Source of the DNA: an uncultured Candidatus Rokubacteria bacterium
Lineage (GTDB): Bacteria > Methylomirabilota > Methylomirabilia > Rokubacteriales > CSP1-6
NCBI GenBank assembly: GCA_963762145.1
Contig: CAVXJS010000007.1
Location: 64,001-128,000, forward strand
DNA length: 64,000 nucleotides
Reading direction: 5' to 3'
This document shows positions 14,790 through 43,889 of this stretch, one piece after another. The notes under the pieces were generated by a model, which saw nothing but the letters and a program-made list of their open reading frames with translations, did no database searches and was not told the origin of the DNA. The position numbers were made by a program, and so were the translations under genes. Position 1 is the stretch's first letter; each line of letters begins with the position of its first letter.

Positions 14790-17129
14790 TCAGTCGTGCT
14801 GCATGTCGGGCTGCCCCTGGGCGACTCGCGGGGGCTTCCCGGCGCGCGACTCTGCGATGCCGGCGAGGACCGCGATCAGCTCCTCGGGGTCTACCGGCTT
14901 CTCCACGAAGACGTTGAAGCCCGCCGCCTGCGCGCGGGCCCGGTCCTGGACCCGCACGTAGGCGGTGAGGGCCACCGCGGGGGTTTCTCGCCCGCTCGCC
15001 CGCTCGAGCGCGCGGAGATTGCGGATCAGCGAGTAGCCGTCCTCGTCGGGCATCGCCAGGTCGGAGACGAGCACATCCGGCCGGATCCAGCGCAGCAGGG
15101 CCAGCGCCTCCGTCGCGGAGGCGGCGGTGCGCACCGCCGCGCCCGCCTCGGTCAGCACGACCGTCAGCATCTCGAGCGCGTCGGGGTCGTCGTCCACCAC
15201 CAGGATCTGCGCTCCCTGCAGGGCCGGCCGGTTGCCGTTGCCGGGGGCGGGACCGGTCCGCGTCTCCGCGATCTTCTCGGCCAGGGGCAGCCGCACGATG
15301 AACGAGGCGCCGTACCCCTCGCCGGCGCTCTCCGCCCGCACGGTGCCCTCGTGCAGCTCGACGAGGGTGCGCACGATGGCGAGCCCCAGGCCCAGCCCTC
15401 CGTGGCGCCGCGTGATGGTGGCGTCGCCCTGGCGGAAGCGGTCGAAGATGAAGGGCAGGAACTCGGCCGCCACGCCCTCGCCGGTATCCGTCACCGTGAT
15501 CTGGGCCTGGCCGTCCACCCGCTCGAGCCGTACCTCGACCCGGCCCCCGGCGGCGGTGAACTTCACGCCGTTGGCGAGCAGGTTCCAGACCACCTGCTGC
15601 AGGCGGCTGGCGTCGCCCTGGGTGTGGCGCGCCGCGGGATCGAGGATCACCGCGAGCTGGATGCCCTTCGCCTCGGCGCCGGCACGCACCGAGTCGGCCG
15701 CGGCATTGATCACGGTGGACAGGTCCACCGGGCCGCGGTTGAGGCGGAGACTCCCGGTGATCACGCGCGAGGCATCGAGGATGTCCTCGATGAGCTGGGC
15801 CTGGGTCTGGGCGTTTCGCTCGATCACCTCCACGCCCCGGGCCACCGTGGTCTCGTCCGGCTTGCCCCAGCGAAGGATGTGCGACCAGCCCAGGATCGCG
15901 TTCAGCGGGGTCCGCAGCTCGTGCGAGACGGTGGCCAGAAACTCGTCCTTCATCCGGTTGGCGGTCTCGGCTTCCGCGCGGGCGGAGTGCTCGCGGGTCA
16001 GCGACCTCCGTCGGTCCTCCAATTCTTCCTGAAGCCGCTGGCGCAGCCGGGCGTTCTCGATCGAGTCGGTCGCGATCCGCGCGTAGAGATCCATGAGGCG
16101 CGTCTCGCGGTCGGACGGCCGATGAGGCTCCGCGAACAACACGGACAGCACGCCGATCGTGTCCCCGCGCCGGCTGATCAGGGGCGTGCTGTGGCAGGCG
16201 CGGAAGCCCGCCCGGCGGGCCGCCTCGCGATACGGCGCGAAGATGGGATCCACCTCGGTATCCTCGACCACGACGCGCCGCCGCTCCGCGTACGCGGTGC
16301 CGCAGGCGCCGCCTCCCGGGGGCACCTCCTCGACGTGCCGGAGGAACTCGTCGTCGAGCCCGGCGTGCACCCCGAGGCGCAGGCCGGGTTGCTCCGCATC
16401 GCAAAGGGAGAGCAGGCCGAGACCGGTGGCCTGCACCGCCATGGCCGCCCGCAGGACCTCGCGCAGCACCGATTCCACGTCGAGCAGGCTGGTCAGGCGC
16501 AGGCTCGTCTCGTGGAGCCGGCGGAGATCCTCGATCTGGGTCTCGAGCTCGCCCAGTCGCCCGCGGGCTGTCCCATCGGGCACGCCGTCCCCGGCGGGAA
16601 TGACGCGCGAGTGGCGGGCGCAGACCTCCGCGATCGGCCCGGCCAGCCCCCGCTCATCGACCTCCGCGAGGGAATAGCCGCAGAAGAGCCGGAACTCGAG
16701 CGTCCGTCGCAGCTCGTTCCACAGATCCTCGAGGCCCACGGTGGCGGAGACTTGTCCGCGCGCGAGGAGCCGGCCGACCATGTCGCCGAACACGCGCAGC
16801 CCGCGGCCGCCGCGCGCGGCGCGCGTCAGCTCGCCGCCGATCACCTCGGCGAAGCGCGCGCGATCGGGCGTGCCGTCCACCATGATCCGCCCGAGGGTCT
16901 CGTCGGCGTCGAGGGGCACGTACGTGCCGGCGGCGCGCGCGGCGTCCACCGCGATGCCCGTCGCGCGCAGGCGCCGCTCGAGCTCGCCCCGATGCTCCGG
17001 GGTGGCCACGACGATGCACGCGTCGCCCGCGGTCAGGCCCGAGGCGATGAAGCTCGTCAGGGAGTCCGAGAGGGCGGGATCCGTCTCGTAGAATTGTACA
17101 GAGTGCTCGTACAGCTCCCGTTCGGGCAT
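14790..17129 (-). CDS. Hybrid sensor histidine kinase MEDS-GAF-HisKA-HATPase-REC
   Basis: HSVQFY...VATPEHR...VFGDMV (MEDS), GAF, FLATVSHELRTPL, NLLANGVKFT, GGLGLGL, ILVVDDD...SDLAMP. Confidence 0.93.
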   Translation of the reverse strand: MPERELYEHSVQFYETDPALSDSLTSFIASGLTAGDACIVVATPEHRGELERRLRATGIAVDAARAAGTYVPLDADETLGRIMVDGTPDRARFAEVIGGELTRAARGGRGLRVFGDMVGRLLARGQVSATVGLEDLWNELRRTLEFRLFCGYSLAEVDERGLAGPIAEVCARHSRVIPAGDGVPDGTARGRLGELETQIEDLRRLHETSLRLTSLLDVESVLREVLRAAMAVQATGLGLLSLCDAEQPGLRLGVHAGLDDEFLRHVEEVPPGGGACGTAYAERRRVVVEDTEVDPIFAPYREAARRAGFRACHSTPLISRRGDTIGVLSVLFAEPHRPSDRETRLMDLYARIATDSIENARLRQRLQEELEDRRRSLTREHSARAEAETANRMKDEFLATVSHELRTPLNAILGWSHILRWGKPDETTVARGVEVIERNAQTQAQLIEDILDASRVITGSLRLNRGPVDLSTVINAAADSVRAGAEAKGIQLAVILDPAARHTQGDASRLQQVVWNLLANGVKFTAAGGRVEVRLERVDGQAQITVTDTGEGVAAEFLPFIFDRFRQGDATITRRHGGLGLGLAIVRTLVELHEGTVRAESAGEGYGASFIVRLPLAEKIAETRTGPAPGNGNRPALQGAQILVVDDDPDALEMLTVVLTEAGAAVRTAASATEALALLRWIRPDVLVSDLAMPDEDGYSLIRNLRALERASGRETPAVALTAYVRVQDRARAQAAGFNVFVEKPVDPEELIAVLAGIAESRAGKPPRVAQGQPDMQHD

Positions 17130-20106: not shown

Positions 20107-20190
20107 CCGTTGGCGCGCGCGCACTGACACTTCCTTGTAGTTTCATCTCCCGCCGTCCTCGTAAGTCCCTGATTTGTGTGGCCAGACCCC

Positions 20191-20206
20191 TGGTGCACTT
20201 CTTGCA
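20191..20206 (+). promoter_or_regulatory. Sigma-54 promoter candidate
   Basis: TGGTGCACTTCTTGCA (GG-N10-GC) within an AT-richer intergenic region. Confidence 0.5.
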
Positions 20207-20266
20207 CAAAAATGCCGCGCCGAGGCGCGTGAGCCCGGCCATTTCCGGTCCGAGAGGAGGCAGCCC

Positions 20267-20641
20267 GTGTCCGAGCCGCGCATTCTGGTGGTCGAGGATG
20301 AGACGAACGTCCGGGAGCTGGAGGCGGAGATCCTGCGCGAGGAGTGGGAGCACGTGGACACTGCGGTGGACGGCACGGACGCGCTGCGGCTCCTGGCCGA
20401 GAACGTCTACTCCGCGATCGTGAGCGATCTCGCGATGCCGAAGATGGACGGGCGCGGGCTCTTCCACGAGGTGGAGCGCCGTTACCCCGCCTCGCAGAGA
20501 CGGCTCGTGTTCGTCACCGGCTACGCGGAGGCCGAGGAGTACGACGAGTTCCTCCGCCAGAGCGGCGTGCCGGTGCTCGCCAAGCCCTTCACCATCGCCG
20601 ATCTGGTCGGCGCGGTGCAGCGGGCGTTCTCGCCGGCCTGA
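20267..20641 (+). CDS. Single-domain response regulator
   Basis: AGGAGG RBS, GTG start, ILVVEDE, SDLAMPKMDG, FVTG, KPF. Confidence 0.9.
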   Translation: MSEPRILVVEDETNVRELEAEILREEWEHVDTAVDGTDALRLLAENVYSAIVSDLAMPKMDGRGLFHEVERRYPASQRRLVFVTGYAEAEEYDEFLRQSGVPVLAKPFTIADLVGAVQRAFSPA

Positions 20642-20654
20642 ACGGACGAGCCCG

Positions 20655-21323
20655 GTGCCCGACGTCGAGCCGTCCCCGCAGCGCTATCGCGAGCTCGTGG
20701 AGCAGAGCGGCGGCCTGATCTGCATCCACGATCTGGCCGGCGTCCTGCTCTCGGTGAATCGCGCGGCGGCCGAGCGCCTCGGCTACACCCCGCGCGAGCT
20801 GATCGGGCGCAGCCTGGGCGACCTGCTCGCCCCGGCCGTCCAGCACCTCTTCCCCGAGTACCTCTCCCGCATCCGGCGCGCCACCACCGACGAGGGGCTC
20901 ATGCTCGTGGTGACGCGCGGCGGGGACGAGCGGATCTGGACGTACAGCAACGTGCGCAGCCGGGAGCCCGGCGGGCCGGAATACGTGCTCGGCCACGCCC
21001 ACGACATCACCGACATCAAGCGGTCCGACGCGCGGGCCGGCCAGGCGGAGGCCCTGCGCTCCGTCGGCCAGCTCGCGCTCGCGACCGCCCACGAGATCAA
21101 CAACCCGCTCACCGTCATCATGGCGAGCCTGCAGCTCATGATGGCGCGGGGGCAGGTGCCGGGCCCGGCGACCGCGTACGTCCAGCGCGCGATCAAGTCG
21201 GCCGAGCAGATCCGCGACACCGTCCGGAACATGTCCCGCATCACCCGGCTCGAGCTGTCCCGCCAGTCCCCCCAGCTTCCCCCCGTCCTCGACCTCTCCA
21301 AGTCCAGCGCCCCGCGGGACTGA
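20655..21323 (+). CDS. PAS + HisKA protein lacking a HATPase domain
   Basis: PAS (VNRAAAERLGY...HDITD), H-box AHEINNPL, ends about 70 aa later. Confidence 0.82.
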   Translation: MPDVEPSPQRYRELVEQSGGLICIHDLAGVLLSVNRAAAERLGYTPRELIGRSLGDLLAPAVQHLFPEYLSRIRRATTDEGLMLVVTRGGDERIWTYSNVRSREPGGPEYVLGHAHDITDIKRSDARAGQAEALRSVGQLALATAHEINNPLTVIMASLQLMMARGQVPGPATAYVQRAIKSAEQIRDTVRNMSRITRLELSRQSPQLPPVLDLSKSSAPRD

Positions 21324-29086: not shown

Positions 29087-31265
29087 ATGCCCCGCATGCC
29101 CTGGAGCCTGACGCGCGGCCAGACCGTCGCGATGGCCCTGCTGGTCGTCGCGCTCCTGACCGACGCGGTCCTCACGCTGCACAACATCCGCGAGGTCGCG
29201 GTCAGCGTGCAGTGGGTGTCTCACACCCACGAGGTGCAGGGCCAGCTCGAGCAGGTCGTCTCCGCCCTCAAGGACGCCGAGACCGGTCAGCGCGGCTATC
29301 TCCTGACCGGCGAGCGGGTCTATCTCGAGCCCTACGAGCAGGCGGCGCCGCGAGTCCCGGGCCACCTCGCGCGGCTCCGGGCGCTCACCATGGACAATCC
29401 GCCGCAGACCGCGCACGTGCTCCGGCTCGAGCAGCTCGTGGCCGAGCGGCTCGCGGTGCTGCGGCAGGGGCTCGACCGCTTCCGGGCCGAGCCCGACCCG
29501 AGCCGGGCGCTCGCGCTCTCCCGGCAGTACCTGCTCCAGGGGGAGGGGAAGCGCCTGATGGATCTGGTCCGCGACGAGATCTACGGCATGCAGCAGCTCG
29601 AGCGCGCGCTGCTCGCCCGGCGGGAGGCGGACTCGCGCACCAACGCCCGCACCGCGCTCGCCAGCACCATGGTTGGTCTCGCGCTGGGTCTGGTCCTGGT
29701 CGCGATGGTCGTCACGCTGGTCGCGCGCAACCAGGCCGCCCGCCAGCGGGCGGCCGACGTGCTGCACGCCGAGCGCGAGCGTTTTCGCACCACCCTCACC
29801 AGCATCGGGGACGCGGTCGTGGTGACCGACGCGCAGGGGCGGATCACGCTGCTGAACCCGGTCGCGCAGGCCCTCACCGGCTGGGGCGCCGAGGCGCTGG
29901 GCCACCCGCTGGACACGGTATTCCGCATCGTCAACGAGACGACGCGGGAGCCGATGGAGAACCCGGCGAGCAAGGTGCTCCGCCTCGGCACCATCGTGGG
30001 TCTCGCCAACCACACCGTGCTGATCGCCAAGGACGACAGCGAGCTGTCCGATCGACGACAGCGGCGCGCCGATCCGCGACACCCGCGGCCGCATCGTGGG
30101 CGTGGTGCTGGTCTTCCGCGACATCACCGACCGGCGCGGCTCGGAGCGCGCCCTGGAGGTCGCCGACCGCCGCAAGGACGAGTTCCTCGCCATGCTGGCT
30201 CACGAGCTGCGCAATCCGCTTGCGCCGATCCGCAATGCGGCCCACACGCTGGCCCTGCTCGGAACCGGCGACGACCGGCTGCGGTGGGTCTCCGGCGTCA
30301 TCGAGCGACAGGTCGGCTTGATGACCCGGCTCGTGGACGATCTGCTCGACGTCTCGCGCATCACGTCGGGCAAGATCACCTTGCAGCGCACCACGGTCTC
30401 GGTCGGGGAGGTCCTCGCCCAGGCGGTGGAGGCGGCGCGCCCCCCCGCGGAGAGCCGGGGTCAGACGCTCAACGTGGACGTGCCGGAGGACGCGGGCTGG
30501 GTGGACGGGGACCCGGCGCGCCTGACCCAGGCGGTCGGCAATCTCCTCGACAACGCGATCAAGTACACCGACGACGGCGGGGGGATCTGGCTCCGCGCGC
30601 GGAACGAGGGAGACGAGGTCGTGATCGTGGTGGAGGACAGCGGGGTCGGCATCGATCCCGAGGTCTTGCCGCACGTGTTCGACCTCTTCATCCAGGCCGA
30701 CCGCTCCCTCGAGCGCAAGCAGGGCGGGCTCGGCCTCGGCCTGACCCTCGTGCGCCGGCTGGTCGAGATGCACGGCGGCCGCGTGGAGGCGGCGAGCGCG
30801 GGCCCGGGCCTGGGGAGCGCCTTCACCATCCGGCTGCCGCGTCGGGCCCACGAGGCCCCGGACGCCGCGGCCGCCGCGGGGCCCGAAGAGGCGCGCCAGC
30901 CGTCGGGCCCGGCCCGCCGCATCCTGGTCGTGGACGACCACCAGGACTCCACCGACTCGCTGGCCCTGTTCCTCCGCCTGCGCGGCCACGAGGTGCGCAC
31001 CGCGAACGACGGGCCGAGCGCGCTCGACGAGATCGAGCGCTACCATCCCGACGTCGTCTTCCTCGACCTGGGGCTGCCCGGCATGAGCGGCTACGACGTG
31101 GCGCGCCGGGTGAGGATGATGAGCGATCCGGACTCGCTGCGGCTGGTGGCGGTCACCGGTTACGGCACCGACGCGGATCGCCAGAAGACACGCGACGCCG
31201 GCTTCGACGTCCACCTCGCCAAGCCGGTGGACCCGCGGGCGGTGGACGCGCTGCTCGCCGGCTGA
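29087..31265 (+). CDS. Hybrid histidine kinase CHASE3-PAS-HisKA-HATPase-REC (frameshift near 30047)
   Basis: DAETGQRGYLLTG (CHASE3), SIGDAVVVTD, FLAMLAHELRNPL, GGLGLGL, DLGLPGMSG. Confidence 0.92.
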
Positions 31266-31306: not shown

Positions 31307-32275
31307 TCACAGGCCGCGGTGCTTCAGGAAGGTGCTGAACCAGGGGCCGACGTAGTTGTCGTGGGTGCTCCTCTTGATCGTGTCCTTGAGCGCGCCCGAC
31401 TGATGATTGTTGATGCTCTTGGCCACGATCGTCAGCGTCTTGGCGCTCCGCTGGTAGCGCCACCAGAAGAAGGCGAGCCCACCGCTGCTCGCCAGCAGGA
31501 GCGCCCCGAGGAGGACGATGCCGGAGATGAGCGCGACCTGGGCCTGGTCGGGCAGGCCCTCGGTCATCCCCTGCCGCGCTCCCCGCATCGCCTGGAGCAT
31601 CACGTGGCTGGTGAGCCCCCCGAACCCGGCCTGGTTGATCGGATCCTCGGCGCCCTCCGCCGCGCCCTTCATCAGGGCCTGCGACATGTTGCGCCCGGCC
31701 TGCAGCATGGACTTCTGGAGCGGGCCCTCGAGGCCCTTGACCACCGACGCGACGAGCTCCTCGCCCATGCGGCGGGCCAGCCGCTCCGCGGACGGAGTCA
31801 CGTCCCGGTCGAGCGAGTCGCGCAGGGTTGTCGTCGTCGCCAGGATGCCGGCCGCGGCCACCCGGCGGAGCTCGAGCTCCAGCGTGGCGCCCGCCGTCTT
31901 GACGAGCTCCCGGACCGCCTCGTCGGTGTCCCGCCGCAGGCTCTCCATCGCTTGGGCCACCAGCGCGTCCACCTGGCGGCGCATCTCGGGCGAGCCCAGG
32001 CGCGCTTCCAGGACCTCGACCGCCGACCGGGCCATGTCGCGCGCGGCCTCCTTGAGCACCGGATCGTCCACGAGGGCACCGCGCAAAGTTTGCCGGAGCG
32101 GCTCCTGGATTCCGGGAATTCCGTCGCGCACGCCCTGCATGGCCCCGCTGGCCGCGCTCTGGGCGGTGGTCCGGTAGTAGTCCTGGGACACGCAGCCGCC
32201 CAGCAGCGCCAGGGCGAGGAGCCCGGGCCCGGCGGCCCGGCAGATGGGACGACAGCGGGTGATCGCGACGCGCAT
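31307..32275 (-). CDS. Hypothetical helical lipoprotein with a C-terminal TM helix
   Basis: Lipobox LLGGC, Ala/Leu/Glu-rich amphipathic helices, TM VALISGIVLLGALLLASSGGLAFFWW. Confidence 0.75.
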   Translation of the reverse strand: MRVAITRCRPICRAAGPGLLALALLGGCVSQDYYRTTAQSAASGAMQGVRDGIPGIQEPLRQTLRGALVDDPVLKEAARDMARSAVEVLEARLGSPEMRRQVDALVAQAMESLRRDTDEAVRELVKTAGATLELELRRVAAAGILATTTTLRDSLDRDVTPSAERLARRMGEELVASVVKGLEGPLQKSMLQAGRNMSQALMKGAAEGAEDPINQAGFGGLTSHVMLQAMRGARQGMTEGLPDQAQVALISGIVLLGALLLASSGGLAFFWWRYQRSAKTLTIVAKSINNHQSGALKDTIKRSTHDNYVGPWFSTFLKHRGL

Positions 32276-32360: not shown

Positions 32361-32388
32361 TTGACGGGCCGCAATTTCCGTCTAGACT
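32361..32388 (+). promoter_or_regulatory. Putative sigma-70 promoter of the CHASE2 operon
   Basis: TTGACG-N16-TAGACT; GGAGG RBS before GTG 32416. Confidence 0.5.
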
Positions 32389-32415
32389 GTTGGGACATTT
32401 CGGTACGGAGGTCGC

Positions 32416-34221
32416 GTGAGTCAGCCCCTCGCAGGAGACGGATCAGCGGAGATCGACTCCGCGTCCGTCGGTGTCCGGCGGCCCGGTCCCGGGACGCGCG
32501 CCCTCGCGCAATTCCTTTTTCTCTCCGCCATCGGCGTCCTGCTCTTCATGTTCCACGGCATCTCGCTCCACCTCACGCCGTGGTCCCAGGCGATCGTCAA
32601 CGGCATCGTGAAGTACGCGTACCCGCCCAAAGGGCAGAACGACACCACGGTGGTCCTGTTCCGGGAAGAGAACCTGGCCGAGCTCGCGGAGTCCTTTCCG
32701 GTGTCCTACGCGCGGCACGCGGAGGTGCTGGAGGCGCTGTCGGTGTACCGGCCCCGCGCGGTGTTCGTGGACTTCGCCTTCATCGACGCGCGCAGCCCCG
32801 AGGACCAGGCTGCGCTCGGACGCGCCATCTGCGATCTCAACGCGCGGGGAAAGGTGCCGGTCTACCTGGCCGCGCCCGCGCCCAGCTCCGACCGCGACCA
32901 GGGCGCCCCGATCAACGCGCGCCTGCTCGAGTGCGCGGAGCCGGTGAACGCGCAGATGGACGTCGAGCGCGGGGTGAGCGGCGTGCTCACCTATCTCCAC
33001 GGGAACCGGCCCGGCGGCGGGGACGCCCGGTTCCGGTGGACGCCCGCCTTCGCGATGTACGATGCGCGCGAGCGCCTCGCGTCGCGCCCGCGCCTCGCGC
33101 CCGAGGACGCGCAGCCGATGGAGATCATCTGGGGCAACCTCGCCTCGAAGCTCAACGAGAGCTGGATGCACTGCACGAGCGAGGCGGCCCTGTGGCACCT
33201 CTTCAACATCCTCCGGGAGAACCCGCTCGCGGCCAAGCGCACGTGCCCGCACACCAACACCATCTCGGTGGTGCACCTCCTGGGGCCGCACAACGAGGGC
33301 GTGCGCCGGGCCGTCGAGGACAAAGCGATCTTCTACGGGGGCAACTTCCAGATGGTCGGCGACCGGGTGATCTCGCCGGTCTACGACGATCTGCCCGGCG
33401 TCTACCTGCACGCGATGGCCTACGACAACCTGGTGACCTTCGGCTCGACCTACAAGCGGGCCGATCACCACGGGCTCTCGCTGTCGAGCGTGGTCAACGG
33501 GCTGCTCCTCCTCTTCACGGTGGTTCTGCTGCTGCTGGTGGACAAGCCGCCCGCGTTCGCCCGGGCCCTGCTCGGCCAGCTCGCGACGGTCAGCCCGTGG
33601 ATCAAGTGGCTGGCCCTCGGCGGTGCCCTGCTGCTGATCGGCGTCACGATCGCGTTCCCCACGAGCCTCGCCGCGGTGCTGCTGCTCCTGCCGCTGCTCC
33701 TGGGCATGGTCGCGGTCCTGCACCTGGCCGCCACGCGCCCGCCGCAGCCCACCACCGCGCGGCAGTTCCTGCGCGTCTGCGCGCTCGGGATCGGCATCCT
33801 GGTGGTGGCGGCGGTGATGTTCCTCGTCGTGGATACCCGCTACGGGATCGAGGCGGGCCTGCTGCTCGTGGTGCTGCCCGGCTACTTCGTCTACAAGGCG
33901 CTGGTGGCGCGCGACGTGCTCTTCGTGGCGACGTCGGGCTTGCTCGTCGCGGCCGCGGTGGTGAGCTTCCTGCCCCCGATCAACCTGGGCCCCCGCAACA
34001 TCGTGGCCTACGTGGCTTTCTTCGAGATCGCGCGGCATCTCATGCGGCACGCCGACGAGGCGGCCGAGAAGTACTTCGCGCTCCGTCGAGCCCATCCGCG
34101 GCCCGAGGAGTGGGGCGTCGGGGCCGGAGTGCTCGGCGCCGTGGACTGGCTGTTCACCCTGTGCTGCCGCGGTGATCACGAGGAGACGAGGCATGAGAGG
34201 ACGACGCATGCGGTGGCGTGA
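32416..34221 (+). CDS. CHASE2 domain membrane protein without a cytoplasmic output domain
   Basis: N-terminal TM; TTVVLF.E..L...FPVSYARHAEVL...PRAVFVDFAF; PGVYLHAMAYDNL; then about 7 TM segments and a short tail. Confidence 0.82.
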   Translation: MSQPLAGDGSAEIDSASVGVRRPGPGTRALAQFLFLSAIGVLLFMFHGISLHLTPWSQAIVNGIVKYAYPPKGQNDTTVVLFREENLAELAESFPVSYARHAEVLEALSVYRPRAVFVDFAFIDARSPEDQAALGRAICDLNARGKVPVYLAAPAPSSDRDQGAPINARLLECAEPVNAQMDVERGVSGVLTYLHGNRPGGGDARFRWTPAFAMYDARERLASRPRLAPEDAQPMEIIWGNLASKLNESWMHCTSEAALWHLFNILRENPLAAKRTCPHTNTISVVHLLGPHNEGVRRAVEDKAIFYGGNFQMVGDRVISPVYDDLPGVYLHAMAYDNLVTFGSTYKRADHHGLSLSSVVNGLLLLFTVVLLLLVDKPPAFARALLGQLATVSPWIKWLALGGALLLIGVTIAFPTSLAAVLLLLPLLLGMVAVLHLAATRPPQPTTARQFLRVCALGIGILVVAAVMFLVVDTRYGIEAGLLLVVLPGYFVYKALVARDVLFVATSGLLVAAAVVSFLPPINLGPRNIVAYVAFFEIARHLMRHADEAAEKYFALRRAHPRPEEWGVGAGVLGAVDWLFTLCCRGDHEETRHERTTHAVA

Positions 34222-34606
34222 GGCCCTCGCGGTCTCGCTGGTTCTCCTGGGTGGGGGCGGCGCGGGCCTGGCCGCCGCGCCGGGGACCGAGACCTTCAGC
34301 GTCAAGGGCCTGCGCACCGACAAGGTGACGCTCTACGACTGCAACAAGGAGAAGGACAAGCGCCGCGCGGTGAAGGAAGTGACCCGGGACAAGTTCGTCG
34401 GCCCGTGGCCGGCGATCCGCGACCCCGATTCGCCGCTCTATCTCAAGGTCCAGGTGGAGCAGGTCGAGTACTGCGTCCGGGCCTTCGCGGTCGATACCGA
34501 CAAGACGGTGACGATCCAGAAAGACATGGAGTGCCGCGCCATGGTGGCCGGCAAGCAGCCCAAGACCGGCGCCACGCGCGGCGTGGGCGAGGAGTGTGGG
34601 AAGTGA
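34193..34606 (+). CDS. Small secreted Cys-containing protein with C-terminal GATRG motif
   Basis: AGGAG RBS, signal peptide, 4 Cys, ends TGATRGVGEECGK; overlaps both neighbours. Confidence 0.78.
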   Translation: MRGRRMRWREALAVSLVLLGGGGAGLAAAPGTETFSVKGLRTDKVTLYDCNKEKDKRRAVKEVTRDKFVGPWPAIRDPDSPLYLKVQVEQVEYCVRAFAVDTDKTVTIQKDMECRAMVAGKQPKTGATRGVGEECGK

Positions 34607-36078
34607 TCCGTCGCCTCGGGCTGGCGCTGGCGCTGCTCGCGCTCGCGGGCTGCGCGGCGACCGGCCCCGGCAAGGAGGGCGGCGGCGTGGCGGTCCCGGC
34701 GTGGATGGGCGGCAAGCCCGCCAACGTGACCGTGCTCTCCACCATCAAGGCCGGCCCGTACGAGCCGTCCACCCTGGCGATCGGCGAGGCGAAGGACATC
34801 GCCCAGCACCGGGGCGACGGCCTGGGGTTCGTGCGATCGGCCGCGCTGGAGCAGTATCTCAACGAAACGCGGGCGCGGATCATCGCGGCCTCCGGCCGGA
34901 CCGGGGTGCCGGGACGGGTGGTGATCCTCGCCAATCCCGGCTTCGTCGCGTTCTCGACGCCCGACGGCAACGTGTACCTCGCGATGGGGCTGATCGAGAC
35001 GCTCGAGAACGGGGACGAGGTGTCGGCGATCCTCGCCCACGAGACCGCCCACGTGCTGCTCAAGCACCACACCTCGGACGTGGTCGCCGACATGCAGAAG
35101 AAGGGGCAGGCTCTGTTCGAGCTCGGGGTGGGGACCAAGGCGGCGCTCGGCGGCCGGAGCACGGTGAGCAAGAGCGATGCCCGGACGATCCAGCAGGTGC
35201 AGCTCGCCACCGACGCGACCGACAAGCTCGTGCTGCCCGCGTGGGGCCGCGGCCAGGAGCGGGAGGCGGATCTCCTCGCGGTGGACCTGCTCGTGGAGAC
35301 CGGGCAGTCGTCGCCCGCGGTGGTGACCATGCTCGAGAAGCTGCAGGCGTGGGAGAAGGCCACCGCGGAGACCGACGAGGCGTTCTGGAATCGAGTGAAC
35401 CAGGCCTCGCAGCGGAACGTCAACGAGGCGATGGGCATGGCGTACCAGAAGATGCTCAGCTCGGTGTCGGTGAACCATCCCAAGACCGAGGAGCGGATCA
35501 CCGAGACCGCGGAGTACTTCGAGCGCCACTACGGCAGCCGCGCGCTGGTCGAGCCCGCGAGCGCACCGTGGAAGGCGCTCCGCGCGCGGCCCGAGGTCGC
35601 CCTCGTGCTGCGGAACTACCGCCAGGCGTTCCTGGCCAAGAAGCTGCTCGACCACGGCAAGTACCAGGAGGCCTACACCACCGCGCGGACCGCGATCGCC
35701 GGGCGCACCGCCACCGACGCGTACCCGAACTGGGTGCTCGCGCGCGCGGCCTTCGCGCTCGGCCGCTCGCGGGAGGGCATCGAGGCGCTCCGGCGGGCGG
35801 TCACCTCGGCCGAGCCGGTGCCGAACGTCTACGAGGATCTGATCGTGGCCCACGAGGGCGCCGGCAACCTGCCCGCGGCGCTCGAGTGGACCGACCAGGC
35901 TTCGAAGACCTTCGGCGGCGCTCCGCGCTGGATGCTGCACAAGATCCGCCTGCTCCGCAAGACGGCCCGGGTGGCGGAGGCGAACAGCGCGACCATCGAC
36001 TGCTCGCTGAACGCGCCGGACTGGAAGCGCCTCTGCCAGGAGGCCAACGCGACGCCGGCCGGGCGCGCCGCGCGCTAG
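34603..36078 (+). CDS. M48 family metalloprotease lipoprotein with TPR-like C-terminus
   Basis: GTGA overlap, lipobox LAGC, AFSTPDG, ILAHETAH (HExxH), QEREAD, NHP...RI, helical repeats. Confidence 0.88.
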   Translation: MIRRLGLALALLALAGCAATGPGKEGGGVAVPAWMGGKPANVTVLSTIKAGPYEPSTLAIGEAKDIAQHRGDGLGFVRSAALEQYLNETRARIIAASGRTGVPGRVVILANPGFVAFSTPDGNVYLAMGLIETLENGDEVSAILAHETAHVLLKHHTSDVVADMQKKGQALFELGVGTKAALGGRSTVSKSDARTIQQVQLATDATDKLVLPAWGRGQEREADLLAVDLLVETGQSSPAVVTMLEKLQAWEKATAETDEAFWNRVNQASQRNVNEAMGMAYQKMLSSVSVNHPKTEERITETAEYFERHYGSRALVEPASAPWKALRARPEVALVLRNYRQAFLAKKLLDHGKYQEAYTTARTAIAGRTATDAYPNWVLARAAFALGRSREGIEALRRAVTSAEPVPNVYEDLIVAHEGAGNLPAALEWTDQASKTFGGAPRWMLHKIRLLRKTARVAEANSATIDCSLNAPDWKRLCQEANATPAGRAAR

Positions 36079-36090
36079 CCGTCGCTGCGG

Positions 36091-36828
36091 TCAGCCGGCC
36101 AGGTCGAGGACCATGGCCGCGTGATCGCTGGCCGGCCGTCCGGTGAGACGGGACAGGCGGCCCCAGTCGTAACGGAATCGGCGGAGCCGGGGCTGGAGCG
36201 CGCGGTTGAGGAAGGCCTGGTCGATCCGGAATCCGTTCCCGCCGTTCGGGGAGTACCAGGTGTAGGCCCGCGCGGCGCCCCGCAGGTGTCGGTAGGCGTC
36301 GGTCCAGCCCGCCTGGTCGAGCTCGCGCATCCAGCCGTCCTCGATCCGGTTGAACGCGGGGACCTGCTCGTCCAGGCCGATGCGGCCGGAGTTCGTATCC
36401 CCGAGCAGCAGCGCGGGGGTGGCCCAGCGCCGCTGCGCGGTGCTGAGCACCGCATCGAGGAACGGGTACTTGCGCCCCCCGACCCGGTTGGGCACGTGCA
36501 TCACGCCGAGCGCGAGTGGCTCCGGGGCCAGGACCCGGGCCAGCAGCCAGCGACACGGCTCGCTGGGGGCGCAGGGGAGGCGGAGCCGGCGCAGCGGCCA
36601 GCGCGAGGCCAGCAGCAGGCCGTTGACCCCGGGCCGCACCGGATCCGCGGTGCTCCACTGGTGGGGGAGCCCGAGCCGGGCGAGGTCGCGGGCCAGCTCC
36701 CCGCTGGGCGGCGTGCCGCGGAACTCGGCCAGCGCCACCGCGTCGGCCTCCCAGACCGCGATCTGCCGCGCGATGGCGGCGGCGCGCACGCCGCCGCCCG
36801 CGCGGATGTTCCAGAAGACGACCCGCAT
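36091..36828 (-). CDS. Endonuclease/exonuclease/phosphatase family protein
   Basis: WNI, ALAE, LLGDTN, YTWYS, RIDQAF, SDHA. Confidence 0.88.
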   Translation of the reverse strand: MRVVFWNIRAGGGVRAAAIARQIAVWEADAVALAEFRGTPPSGELARDLARLGLPHQWSTADPVRPGVNGLLLASRWPLRRLRLPCAPSEPCRWLLARVLAPEPLALGVMHVPNRVGGRKYPFLDAVLSTAQRRWATPALLLGDTNSGRIGLDEQVPAFNRIEDGWMRELDQAGWTDAYRHLRGAARAYTWYSPNGGNGFRIDQAFLNRALQPRLRRFRYDWGRLSRLTGRPASDHAAMVLDLAG

Positions 36829-41309: not shown

Positions 41310-42156
41310 ATGACCTACTGTGTCGGGATCTGGACCAAGTACGGCCTGGTGATGGCGTCGGACTCGCGGACCAACGCGGGCTACGACCAGGTCAACATCG
41401 CGCGCAAGATGCACACCTTCGTCCAGCCGGGCGAGCGCGTGTTCATCCTGCTCAGCAGCGGCAGCCTCTCCTGCACGCAGTCGATCATCACCCTGCTCCA
41501 GCGCGACTTCGACCAGGGCAAGGGGCTGGCGCAGGCGCCGTCGCTCTACGACGCGGCCCGCATCATCGGCGAGCAGGTGCGCCGCGTCTCGGACATGGAT
41601 CGGGACGCCCTCGAGCGCGACGACTACAAGTTCAACGTCCACCTGGTGCTGGGCGGGCAGGTGCGAGGAGAGTCGCCCGGCCTCTTCATCATCTACCCGC
41701 AGGGCAACCCGCTGCAGGCGAGCGTGGACTCGCCGTACCTCCAGATCGGCGAGACGAAGTACGGGCGGCCGATCCTCGACCGCGGCATCCGCTTCGAGCG
41801 CACGACGCTGGAGGAGGCGGCGAAGTACGCGCTGCTCTCGATCGACTCGACGATGCGGTCGAACGTGACGGTGGGCCCGCCGGTGGACCTGCTCGCCTAC
41901 GAGGTGGACGAGCTCGAGATCACCCGGCTGCGCCGGTTCCCCGCGGGCGACCCCGACCTCCTCAAGATCGGCATGCGCTGGGAGCAGGCCCTCCGGCAGG
42001 CGGTGGGTCGGCTGCCGCAGATCCGGTTCCGGGCCCGCCGGCCCACGGAGCCGTCCCAGATGCCGCCCGCGGAGACGATCGAGCTCGTCGAGCCGGCTCG
42101 GGACCGAGGTCCCGAGCGCCGAGCTGCAGCCGCAGGCCAAACCGCCATCATCCTGA
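41310..42156 (+). CDS. Anbu proteasome-type (Ntn) protease; end inferred (as sequenced it reads through into the AOR)
   Basis: MTYCVG...SDSRTNAG, LGGQ, IYPQGN, QIGETKYGRPILDR, DSTMRSNVTVGPP. A frameshift near 42098 would end it at TGA 42154-42156. Confidence 0.85.
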
Positions 42157-42176
42157 CCGAACCCAAGGAGCGAGCG

Positions 42177-43889
42177 ATGCGCACCTACTACGACATCCGC
42201 CTGAGCGACCGGAACATCACCAAGCGCGAGCTGGAGGGCGAGGCCATCGTGAAGGCCGGCCGGTACTTCATCGCCAGGACCCTGCTCGACCTGGGCGCGG
42301 CCACCGTCGATCCGCTCTCGCCCGCCAATCCGCTGATCTTTTCGGCGGGGCCCTTCGCGGGGACCAGCTTCTCCAACGCCAACCGCACGAGCGTGGGCTG
42401 CAAGAGCCCGCTCACCGGCGGCATCAAGGAGGCCAACGGGGGCGGCAGCTTCAGCTACGGGCTCGGCCAGCAGAAGATCGCCGGGTTCACCCTGCTGGAC
42501 GCCTCGCCCGACTGGGTGGTCATCCACTTCAAGAAGGACGGCACGATCGAGTTCGACGACGCCAAGCCGTACCTGGGCAAGGGCAATTTCGAGGCCCAGA
42601 ACATGCTGCACGCCAAGTACGGCAAGAAGGTCACGATCGCCCTCTGCGGCCCGGTGGGCGAGTACGAGGGCCTGATCGCGGGCATCGCCTTCAGCGACAA
42701 GGACGGGCGGCCCGCCCGGCTCTCCGCCCGCGGCGGCGTCGGCGCGGTCATGGGATCGAAGAAGGTCAAGGCCGTCGTGGTGGACCTCGACAAGATCCCG
42801 CCGTTCTCCGACCCCAAGAAGGTGAACGCGGCCATCAAGAACTACGCGAAGATGCTCCAGGCCGATTCGATGGTATCCAACTTCTACGCCAAGGTCGGCA
42901 CCATGGGCATGGCCGATCTCCAGAACACGCTGGGCGGCCTGCCGGTGAACAACTTCAGCGTGGGCCGGCAGGTGGACGTCTCCACCGGCGAGAAGTTCAA
43001 GATGGGGGGCGAGTACATCAGCCAGCTCAACGTCTCGCGCGGCGGCGAGCACACCCACGCCTGCATGCCCGGCTGCGTGATCCAGTGCAGCAACATCTAC
43101 GCGGACAAGGACGGCAAGGAAGTGGTCTCCCCGGTCGAGTACGAGACGCTCGGCCTGCTCGGGACCAACTGCGGCCTCACCGATCCCGACGACCTCGCCC
43201 AGATGAACTACCTCGCCAACGACCTGGGCGTCGACACCATCGAGCTGGGGGCCATGATCGCGGTGCTGATGGAGGCGGGCCTCGGCCGCTTCGGGGACGT
43301 GACGTTCATGGCCGAGTGCCTGGCCGAGATCCGGAAGGGCTCCGAGAAGGGGCGGATCTGGGCCCAGGGCACCGCGCGGGTCGGCGAGCACTACCAGGTC
43401 AAGCGGGTGCCGGTCATCAAGAAGCAGGCGATCAGCGCCTACGATCCGCGGGTCGTCGAGGCCACCGGCATCACCATGATGGCCACCGCCCAGGGCGCCG
43501 ACCACACCGCGGGGAACCTGCCGCGGCTCAAGACGCGCGAGATGGAGGCTCCCGCCATCGTGGAGCAGAGCGTGGCCCACCAGGCGCGGGTGGCCGCCAA
43601 CGACTCCCTCGGCCTCTGCATCTTCGGCATGAGCGTGACCAATCCCAATACCGAGTGGCTCACCGAGACCATCAACGCGGCCCACGGCACCACGCTGACC
43701 AAGGACTTCTTCGAGGCTCTCGGCCGCCAGGCCCTCAAGCTCGAGCACGAGTTCAACAAGCGGGCCGGCTTCACCGCCAAGGACGACGAGCTACCCGAGT
43801 TCTTCTACGCGGAGGCGCTGCCGCCGACCAATCACGTGGCGCGCTTCCACGCCGCCGACGTGCAGGGCATGTACGAGCGACTAGTCTGA
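42177..43889 (+). CDS. Aldehyde:ferredoxin oxidoreductase family (W/Mo-pterin) protein
   Basis: Own AAGGAG RBS; KSPLTGGIKEANGGG, RGGVGAVMGSKKVKA, CMPGCVIQC, EYET, NDLGVDTI, DSLGLC. Confidence 0.9.
   Translation: MRTYYDIRLSDRNITKRELEGEAIVKAGRYFIARTLLDLGAATVDPLSPANPLIFSAGPFAGTSFSNANRTSVGCKSPLTGGIKEANGGGSFSYGLGQQKIAGFTLLDASPDWVVIHFKKDGTIEFDDAKPYLGKGNFEAQNMLHAKYGKKVTIALCGPVGEYEGLIAGIAFSDKDGRPARLSARGGVGAVMGSKKVKAVVVDLDKIPPFSDPKKVNAAIKNYAKMLQADSMVSNFYAKVGTMGMADLQNTLGGLPVNNFSVGRQVDVSTGEKFKMGGEYISQLNVSRGGEHTHACMPGCVIQCSNIYADKDGKEVVSPVEYETLGLLGTNCGLTDPDDLAQMNYLANDLGVDTIELGAMIAVLMEAGLGRFGDVTFMAECLAEIRKGSEKGRIWAQGTARVGEHYQVKRVPVIKKQAISAYDPRVVEATGITMMATAQGADHTAGNLPRLKTREMEAPAIVEQSVAHQARVAANDSLGLCIFGMSVTNPNTEWLTETINAAHGTTLTKDFFEALGRQALKLEHEFNKRAGFTAKDDELPEFFYAEALPPTNHVARFHAADVQGMYERLV

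Follow-up and report, generated by a model that had tools for sequence, protein, structure and literature searches.

The CHASE2 ectodomain is preceded by one transmembrane (TM) helix and followed by three, and it is found fused to kinases, cyclases, GGDEF domains and metacaspases (PMC5192318; PMC3501461; PMC8195603). As of 2016 the factors that it recognises were not known (PMC5192318). The use of a protein partner or protein signal by CHASE2 has precedent, since a secreted LysM/FecR protein is encoded beside a CHASE2 kinase in the 'BiofilmReg' operon of Burkholderia (PMC5192318) and the signal to which the CHASE2 cyclases of Sinorhizobium meliloti respond, through NsrA, is a plant protein (PMC13001267). 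A CHASE2 gene is also found near a DUF928 gene in Nostoc (PMC5587647), and in Caulobacter the co-regulated genes CCNA_00635-00637 are listed as encoding a 'CHASE2 membrane receptor', a hypothetical protein and a TPR protein (PMC11724286, Table 1). Here we analyze a 64,000-nucleotide (nt) stretch of contig CAVXJS010000007.1 from an uncultured Candidatus Rokubacteria bacterium, referred to in full as the window, in which an operon combines a CHASE2 membrane protein that has no output domain, a small secreted protein and a lipoprotein zinc metalloprotease of family M48. We call these three genes the trio.

The trio is a conserved three-gene envelope module, and it extends beyond the single locus from which it was first described in an earlier reading of the sequence (the original prediction). 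We favour, with a probability of about 0.4, the reading that the three products form a self-contained periplasmic unit of sensor, adaptor and protease, with proteolysis as its output. The searchable full-text literature, which included few subscription journals and was seen as titles, abstracts and some passages, yielded no description of the trio. Searches of it that paired CHASE2 with M48, metalloprotease or Rokubacteria likewise returned nothing relevant.

Layout and conservation of the three genes

In a window of about 70% G+C, the real genes were picked from among many long open reading frames (ORFs) by codon-position GC and domain content. Three overlapping genes, for the CHASE2 protein, the small secreted protein and the M48 protease, fill positions 32416-36078 of the forward strand, with third-position GC of 0.94, 0.90 and 0.90 respectively, as in real genes here. 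The CHASE2 and small genes overlap by 29 nt. The overlap of the small and M48 genes is 4 nt, the M48 start codon and the TGA stop of the small gene sharing the sequence GTGA. The overlapping arrangement that had been proposed is therefore borne out. The proposed beginning of the unit at 32361 coincides with a promoter-like hexamer, which is a consensus match only, and is not the start of a gene. The promoter scan gave one putative site against 0.1 expected in shuffled sequence, and no terminator-like site was found between the trio genes or after the third gene.

The same gene order is present in six lineages of two phyla, namely the Methylomirabilota and five proteobacterial replicons (Caballeronia, Photobacterium, Novosphingobium, Paroceanicella and Tistrella) that span the Alpha-, Beta- and Gammaproteobacteria. 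A scan of genome contigs with the small-protein alignment found three loci, L001-L003, in metagenome-assembled genomes of Methylomirabilota/Rokubacteria. Compared with the window they are 84% identical in CHASE2, 66-69% in the small protein, 86-88% in M48 and 92-97% in the flanking genes, and because the whole neighbourhood is syntenic these loci are not independent evidence. Independent trios come from tblastn comparisons with annotated plasmid and secondary-replicon records. The CHASE2 protein of the window matched two records and two proteobacterial CHASE2 proteins matched three each; all three records in the union of these matches (Caballeronia, Photobacterium and Novosphingobium) are trios. 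The M48 protein of the window matched 11 records, and the four best (Paroceanicella, Caballeronia, Tistrella and Photobacterium) are again all trios. Two weaker matches, which cover residues 51-260 (about 40% of the query), are the solitary M48 genes of S. meliloti and Legionella adelaidensis, which have no CHASE2 gene beside them; five further weak matches (three Sinorhizobium sp., Shinella and Aeromonas) are left out of this comparison. The small protein had no tblastn match in the plasmid records, and further queries gave no additional record.

The spacing of the genes is tight in four of the five proteobacterial trios, where adjoining genes overlap by up to 7 nt or lie up to 21 nt apart; in Paroceanicella the gaps are 115 and 27 nt. 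The flanking genes differ between lineages (Caballeronia, Paroceanicella and Tistrella were compared), which argues that the trio itself is the unit. Indirect evidence of linkage comes from clusters of homologs whose longest contigs have identical lengths, of at least 4 kb: 11 such pairs join CHASE2 and M48, 7 join the small protein and CHASE2, and 3 join the small protein and M48.

The products also keep their form across the six lineages. The CHASE2 proteins have 477-721 amino acids (aa), with 19-82 residues past the last TM helix. The small proteins have 107-137 aa and a signal peptide in each case, and all six carry a Cys-Cys loop of 19-31 residues whose last cysteine lies 0-5 residues from the end. 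The M48 proteins have 491-651 aa, and the lipobox cysteine, the HExxH site and a near-C-terminal C-x(10-11)-C pair are present in every one. Pfam finds nothing but CHASE2 in the receptors of the proteobacterial trios, and in their proteases M48 with or without weak TPR matches. Between the window and Caballeronia, the M48 proteins align over nearly their full length, the C-terminal cysteine pair included, with 25% identity (E 5e-33); for the CHASE2 ectodomains the identity is 28% (E 1e-21).

The original prediction that the trio is conserved as a unit thus holds in six lineages. It is very improbable that the three genes are mere neighbours with unrelated functions. The failure of a complex prediction to give a verdict (see below) would be compatible with such independence, but mere neighbourhood would leave unexplained both the same order and tight coupling amid differing flanks in two phyla and the co-occurrence of subfamily-specific hallmarks with the trio.

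The three proteins

The 601-aa product of the first gene matches CHASE2 and no other Pfam family (52.5 bits against a cut-off of 26.3, E 6.6e-14), and it has no NCBIfam match. No cyclase, kinase or GGDEF domain was found in it. Residues that are invariant in the alignment of the CHASE2 family include D119, C277, D316, H332, D337 and N338 and, further along, D500, P526 and N528. Hydropathy places one TM segment ahead of the domain (about residues 30-50), after an N-terminal tail of about 25 residues, and six strong TM peaks behind it. The AlphaFold2 (AF2) model built with 30 relatives (predicted local distance difference test, pLDDT, 79; predicted template modelling score, pTM, 0.79) has helices at residues 356-375, 394-413, 424-440, 448-476, 478-496 and 501-518 and a long seventh at 529-559, in agreement with the claim of about seven TM segments after the sensor domain and no output. 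The long last helix carries a conserved LGPRN..FFE..R motif, and the conserved part of the region is the last hairpin. Two of the helices behind the domain are an insertion of the clade to which the window belongs, and shorter members of the family are without them. The helices behind the domain therefore number five or seven in the family of the window, and about three in the proteobacterial copies (2-3 peaks in crude scans).

We rejected the possibility that the gene is a truncated cyclase or kinase, because the homologs have no output domain and the TM region is always C-terminal. There are 256 homologs at E 0.001 or better, and the 120 of them that were listed have CHASE2 only, with lengths of 399-638 aa, mostly 570-640. 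An exhaustive search with the TM part (residues 371-601) gave 45 representatives, in all of which the match is C-terminal, in proteins of at most 680 aa or in fragments. Of these distant relatives 21 were scanned: CHASE2 is present in 20, a cyclase, kinase or GGDEF domain in none, and sub-threshold transporter-like matches over the TM region in two.

The original prediction had also let the extra TM bundle act as a channel or effector. Such a role is unlikely because the number of helices is specific to the lineage (3, 5 or 7), and for the same reason we rejected the bundle as a conserved effector. Foldseek gave no match of the CHASE2 model to the Protein Data Bank (PDB) at E 0.001 or better, so that no solved structure resembles the model and no fold is assigned.

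The same topology bears on the idea that the CHASE2 protein is itself the substrate, its ectodomain being cut by the M48 protease in the manner of site-1 cleavage of an anti-sigma factor, with the small protein masking the site until there is a cue. It is well established that membrane sensors can be controlled by regulated proteolysis, and the co-conservation of the three genes would suit the idea. However, the residues past the last TM helix and the short N-terminal tail leave no room in the cytoplasm for a domain to which a sigma factor or regulator could be bound, and no gene for one is conserved in the flanks of Caballeronia, Paroceanicella and Tistrella, so that we regard this arrangement as improbable.

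The product of the second gene is, as had been described, a secreted protein with a signal peptide and four cysteines, at positions 50, 94, 114 and 135. Its C-terminal end is GATRGVGEECGK, also given as TGATRGVGEECGK. Neither Pfam nor NCBIfam assigns it to a family, and no Pfam family was found for the small proteins of any of the six lineages with the E limit set at 0.01 or 0.1. The suggestion that it is a DUF928-type partner was rejected for this lack of a Pfam match. A search gave 55 homologs, all unnamed or 'hypothetical', with Methylomirabilota the sole organism name shown, and 30 of these were aligned. R129 and G132 are invariant in the alignment, with the exception of two frame-shifted sequences, and conservation is 90% or more for C114, G126, A127, T128, G130, V131, E133 and C135 and extends to members that share only 40% identity overall. 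The Cys-flanked motif at the C-terminus is the most conserved segment of the protein, and the expected conservation of its two cysteines is seen both in this alignment and in the loops of all six lineages. The two exceptions (P0044 and P0049) have ends that read an alternative frame, like ORF 34405 of the window, and have lost the GATRGVGEEC tail; a frameshift in the contig or in the gene call is the probable cause. Compared with the CHASE2, M48 and flanking genes, the small gene of L001-L003 has diverged more quickly, with its tail constant.

Cys50 and Cys94 are both present in 25 of the aligned sequences and both absent in 4, and one sequence is deleted there. This joint presence and absence fits a disulfide between Cys50 and Cys94 and a second one between Cys114 and Cys135, which would close a 20-residue loop round GATRGVGEE. 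In the AF2 model (pLDDT 69.8) a beta-rich core, residues 31-110, is placed with confidence. The pLDDT falls below 50 at 117-127 and 130-137, and the tail is predicted to be disordered on its own. Foldseek found no match at E 0.001 or better. Its top ten hits have E of 0.06-0.4 and probabilities of 0.77-0.98, and most of them are proteins with bacterial SH3 (SH3b) domains, one being explicitly an 'SH3-like_bac-type domain'. The Atlas search gave one SH3_3 cluster at 0.91, the other clusters being unnamed, and the best E in a PDB profile search with the small-protein alignment was 0.27.

Beyond the Methylomirabilota the tail varies. TRGVGEEC in the window corresponds to THGLGEGC in Photobacterium, TRALGNC in Paroceanicella, SRNAGSARC in Caballeronia and PRTGSNLGNGC in Tistrella, and the tail of Novosphingobium is Gly-rich and has no basic residue. 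The claim that TRG is conserved therefore stands for the Methylomirabilota, where the motif is near-invariant, and in part for the proteobacteria, where three of the five copies have the form [ST]-[RH] and Tistrella has RT; it does not stand for Novosphingobium.

This pattern speaks for the mechanism of the original prediction, in which the M48 protease would clip the small protein at T-R-G within the disulfide loop, CHASE2 would bind the product as its ligand, and the TM bundle would either signal to a kinase in trans or itself be a channel or effector. A near-invariant motif in a tail that is disordered in the model would suit a cleavage site, and the conservation of the trio, the conserved polar motif of the last TM region and a CHASE3 hybrid kinase upstream in the window would all be in line with such a scheme. 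The Novosphingobium tail is difficult to reconcile with it, as are the variable number of TM helices and the flanks of Caballeronia, Paroceanicella and Tistrella, in which no kinase or regulator is conserved beside the trio. The small protein may be cut at RG and the product sensed by CHASE2, but the step in which the TM bundle is the effector is lost because the extra helices are clade-specific. Taken as a whole, the scheme seems to us rather unlikely.

The third gene encodes a protein that matches Pfam Peptidase_M48 with 73.2 bits against a cut-off of 20.3. In an alignment of 32 sequences the residues C17, H146, E147, H150, E219, E221, C467 and C478 are invariant. Judged from these residues the active site is intact, and the lipobox marks the product as a predicted lipoprotein, in line with the lipid-anchored HExxH protease that had been proposed. 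Its TPR-like repeats are less distinct, as the TPR models stay below their cut-offs (TPR_16 23.4 against 32.7, TPR_14 20.9 against 23.5, and TPR_19 also below), and with the 32-member profile there is a match to the TPR protein MamA (E 0.0011, profile positions 354-441). At E 1e-5 or better the search gave 153 homologs; most of the organism names given for them are Rokubacteria/Methylomirabilota, with one Verrucomicrobia and one Vicinamibacteria.

Some of these homologs are named 'beta-barrel assembly-enhancing protease' in their source records, and the best relatives of solved structure include BepA chains, at E 7e-9 for the single sequence and about 1e-13 for the profile. Together with the shared architecture of M48 and TPR-like domains, this would suit a housekeeping protease of the BepA/YcaL/LoiP type that acts on misassembled envelope proteins, with the CHASE2 and small proteins as cofactors for substrate delivery or anchoring and not as a sensor system. 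However, the NCBIfam scores (37.2 bits against a cut-off of 570 for BepA, the equivalog NF052400, and 35.6 against 365 for LoiP, NF052399) are so far under the cut-offs that the protein is an ortholog of neither, and the PDB matches span the protease domain only. Nor would a housekeeping role explain the strict linkage to CHASE2. Other M48 genes, those of S. meliloti and Legionella adelaidensis, are solitary. We consider envelope quality control an unlikely function of the trio.

Proteolysis as a possible output

In the reading that we favour, the CHASE2 protein would sit in the inner membrane and display its ectodomain in the periplasm, with no cytoplasmic signalling domain and with TM helices that serve mainly as an anchor. 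The ectodomain would be the sensing or holding element, which holds the small protein or releases it upon a cue. The flexible, Cys-closed loop at the C-terminus of the small protein would then dock into the M48 protease, either as a pseudo-substrate or inhibitor or as a substrate, and the output would be regulated periplasmic proteolysis instead of a cytoplasmic second messenger or phosphorelay. A unit of sensor, adaptor and protease would explain why an output domain is missing, why the anchor varies while the tail is conserved, and why a dedicated M48 subfamily is involved.

Several points weigh against this reading. Gene structure, domain content, the lack of an output domain and the conservation of the trio and its hallmark residues are direct observations, whereas the physical interactions, the direction of control and the substrate are inferred. 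The prediction of a three-chain complex (CHASE2 ectodomain 45-358, M48 18-491 and small protein 30-137) gave no verdict: its scores were 0.43, 0.36 and 0.01, a control with the M48 protein replaced gave 0.25, and the run speaks neither for nor against binding. Sequence alone is too weak to prove that the small proteins of the two phyla are homologous, with E of about 0.02 for the small-protein profile against each of three proteobacterial small proteins in hhalign, and their homology is recognised mainly by position, size and the Cys-loop pattern. The SH3b-like core of the small protein is a suggestive lead from the models, given Foldseek E values that reach only 0.06-0.4. The census of trios is small, with six lineages, and the genome scan gave close relatives only. 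Finally, the LGPRN..FFE..R motif and the long last helix could mediate a cytoplasmic or intramembrane signal in the Methylomirabilota family.

The loop of the small protein might also be the first genetically defined ligand of a CHASE2 domain, with the M48/TPR protein setting its availability by cleavage or capture, which would make the trio a complete periplasmic switch, proteolytic in nature, that needs no cytoplasmic enzyme domain. We hold this bolder version to be unlikely, but if it were true, CHASE2 domains in general would read protein tails and not small molecules.

Returning to the trio as a sensor, adaptor and protease, it comprises a CHASE2 receptor that has, in place of a fused enzyme, a periplasmic M48 protease from the same operon as its partner and probable output. 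For the question of what CHASE2 domains sense, the trio offers a minimal and portable system: its CHASE2 protein consists of only an ectodomain and an anchor, and in the trios found it is always accompanied by two defined periplasmic partners. Because the CHASE2 protein is bare and its partners are defined, binding, cleavage and structure could be tested directly with three recombinant proteins. If proteolysis is the output, the trio would add to the CHASE2 repertoire a logic that leads from sensor to periplasmic protease with no cytoplasmic enzyme, and it would assign a role to a distinct M48 subfamily.

Neighbouring genes and comparison with described systems

Table 1. Positions in the window of the trio, its parts and the genes around it.
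Feature	Position	Strand	Details
Promoter-like site	32361-32388	+	Sigma-70-like match TTGACG-16-TAGACT, upstream of operon; consensus match only
Gene 1, output-less CHASE2 membrane protein	32416-34221	+	601 aa; GTG start, GGAGG upstream
Periplasmic CHASE2 domain	32572-33537	+	Residues 53-374, PF05226
Multi-TM region	33484-34092	+	Residues ~357-559; six hydrophobic helices and a long last helix
Gene 2, small secreted protein	34193-34606	+	137 aa; likeliest start ATG 34193, 7 nt past GAGGAG
C-terminal loop	34532-34597	+	Cys114...Cys135, containing GATRGVGEE
Gene 3, lipoprotein M48 zinc metalloprotease	34603-36078	+	491 aa; GTG start, GAGGAG upstream
Lipobox cysteine	34651-34653	+	Cys17 (LLALAGC); invariant in 32 sequences
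HExxH zinc site	35038-35052	+	HETAH (H146, E147, H150)
C-terminal helical/TPR-like domain	35620-36075	+	Contains Cys467-x10-Cys478
Exo_endo_phos gene	36091-36828	-	Convergent with M48 gene, 12 nt past M48 stop
Divergent gene	31307-32275	-	322 aa; lipobox-like N-terminus LLGGC, one C-terminal TM
Hybrid histidine kinase	29087-31265	+	CHASE3, PAS, HisKA, HATPase, REC; spread over two frames
Hybrid kinase	14790-17129	-	MEDS, GAF, HisKA, HATPase, REC
Response regulator and PAS-HisKA fragment	20174-21323
Aldehyde ferredoxin oxidoreductase ORF	41310-43889	+	Pfam domains only from residue 295

On the downstream side of the trio (Table 1), the Exo_endo_phos gene has weak exodeoxyribonuclease III matches and is syntenic in L002 and L003. 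The divergent gene on the other side encodes a protein that belongs to no Pfam or NCBIfam family; it adjoins the trio in L001 and L003, and the position is unoccupied in the three annotated proteobacterial trios that were checked. Beyond it, the CHASE3 kinase gene has an apparent 1-nt frameshift near 30045-30052, after which the PAS domain resumes in the other frame, and is either a pseudogene or the product of an assembly error. Two frames are likewise seen in this gene in L003. With the MEDS hybrid kinase, the response regulator and the PAS-HisKA fragment, the region is rich in signalling genes. The aldehyde ferredoxin oxidoreductase ORF has either a long N-terminal extension or a start that was called too early.

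The nearest described relatives of the first protein are the canonical CHASE2 receptors, CyaD1, CyaD2 and CyaK of S. meliloti and the Burkholderia kinase, which share with it an ectodomain set between an N-terminal TM helix and later ones. In the Burkholderia operon the gene of the secreted partner adjoins that of the receptor, as it does in the trio. The canonical receptors have a fused output, whereas none of the relatives examined here has one; the small partner of the trio is also a different one, of no Pfam family, and a protease gene completes the operon. A combination of CHASE2 with a protease is known from the metacaspase-CHASE2 fusions of cyanobacteria, although there the metacaspase is fused and cytoplasmic (PMC3501461). 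The Caulobacter cluster resembles the trio in having a CHASE2 gene and a TPR-protein gene with a hypothetical gene between them, a likeness that is drawn from the descriptions in the published table and serves as a lead only (PMC11724286).

For the protease the closest comparison is with BepA of Escherichia coli, which is likewise periplasmic and has a catalytic domain followed by a helical TPR-like domain. Unlike BepA, the M48 protein of the trio has a predicted lipoprotein anchor at Cys17, a C-terminal C-x(10-11)-C pair and, in every trio found, linkage to CHASE2 and a small protein; it scores 37 bits against the cut-off of 570 with the NCBIfam BepA model, and its match to the solved structure is confined to the protease domain. 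LoiP and YcaL are lipid-anchored periplasmic M48 enzymes, as the trio protease is predicted to be, and a weak NCBIfam match to LoiP is found (36 bits against 365). The trio protease adds a C-terminal domain of about 150 residues, and we know of no such extra domain in LoiP or YcaL.

The small protein showed no sequence or fold relation to AprI/Inh or to RcsF (best E 0.27 in the PDB profile search), and in the way they work, as an analogy only, these proteins still provide models for the two contacts proposed here. Inhibitors of the AprI/Inh type, whose genes lie next to that of their protease, are small periplasmic beta proteins that insert a terminal segment into a neighbouring metalloprotease, as the loop of the small protein might do with M48. 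IgaA is a multipass inner-membrane protein with no output domain, whose periplasmic domain reads the small envelope protein RcsF, much as the CHASE2 ectodomain might read the small protein of the trio.

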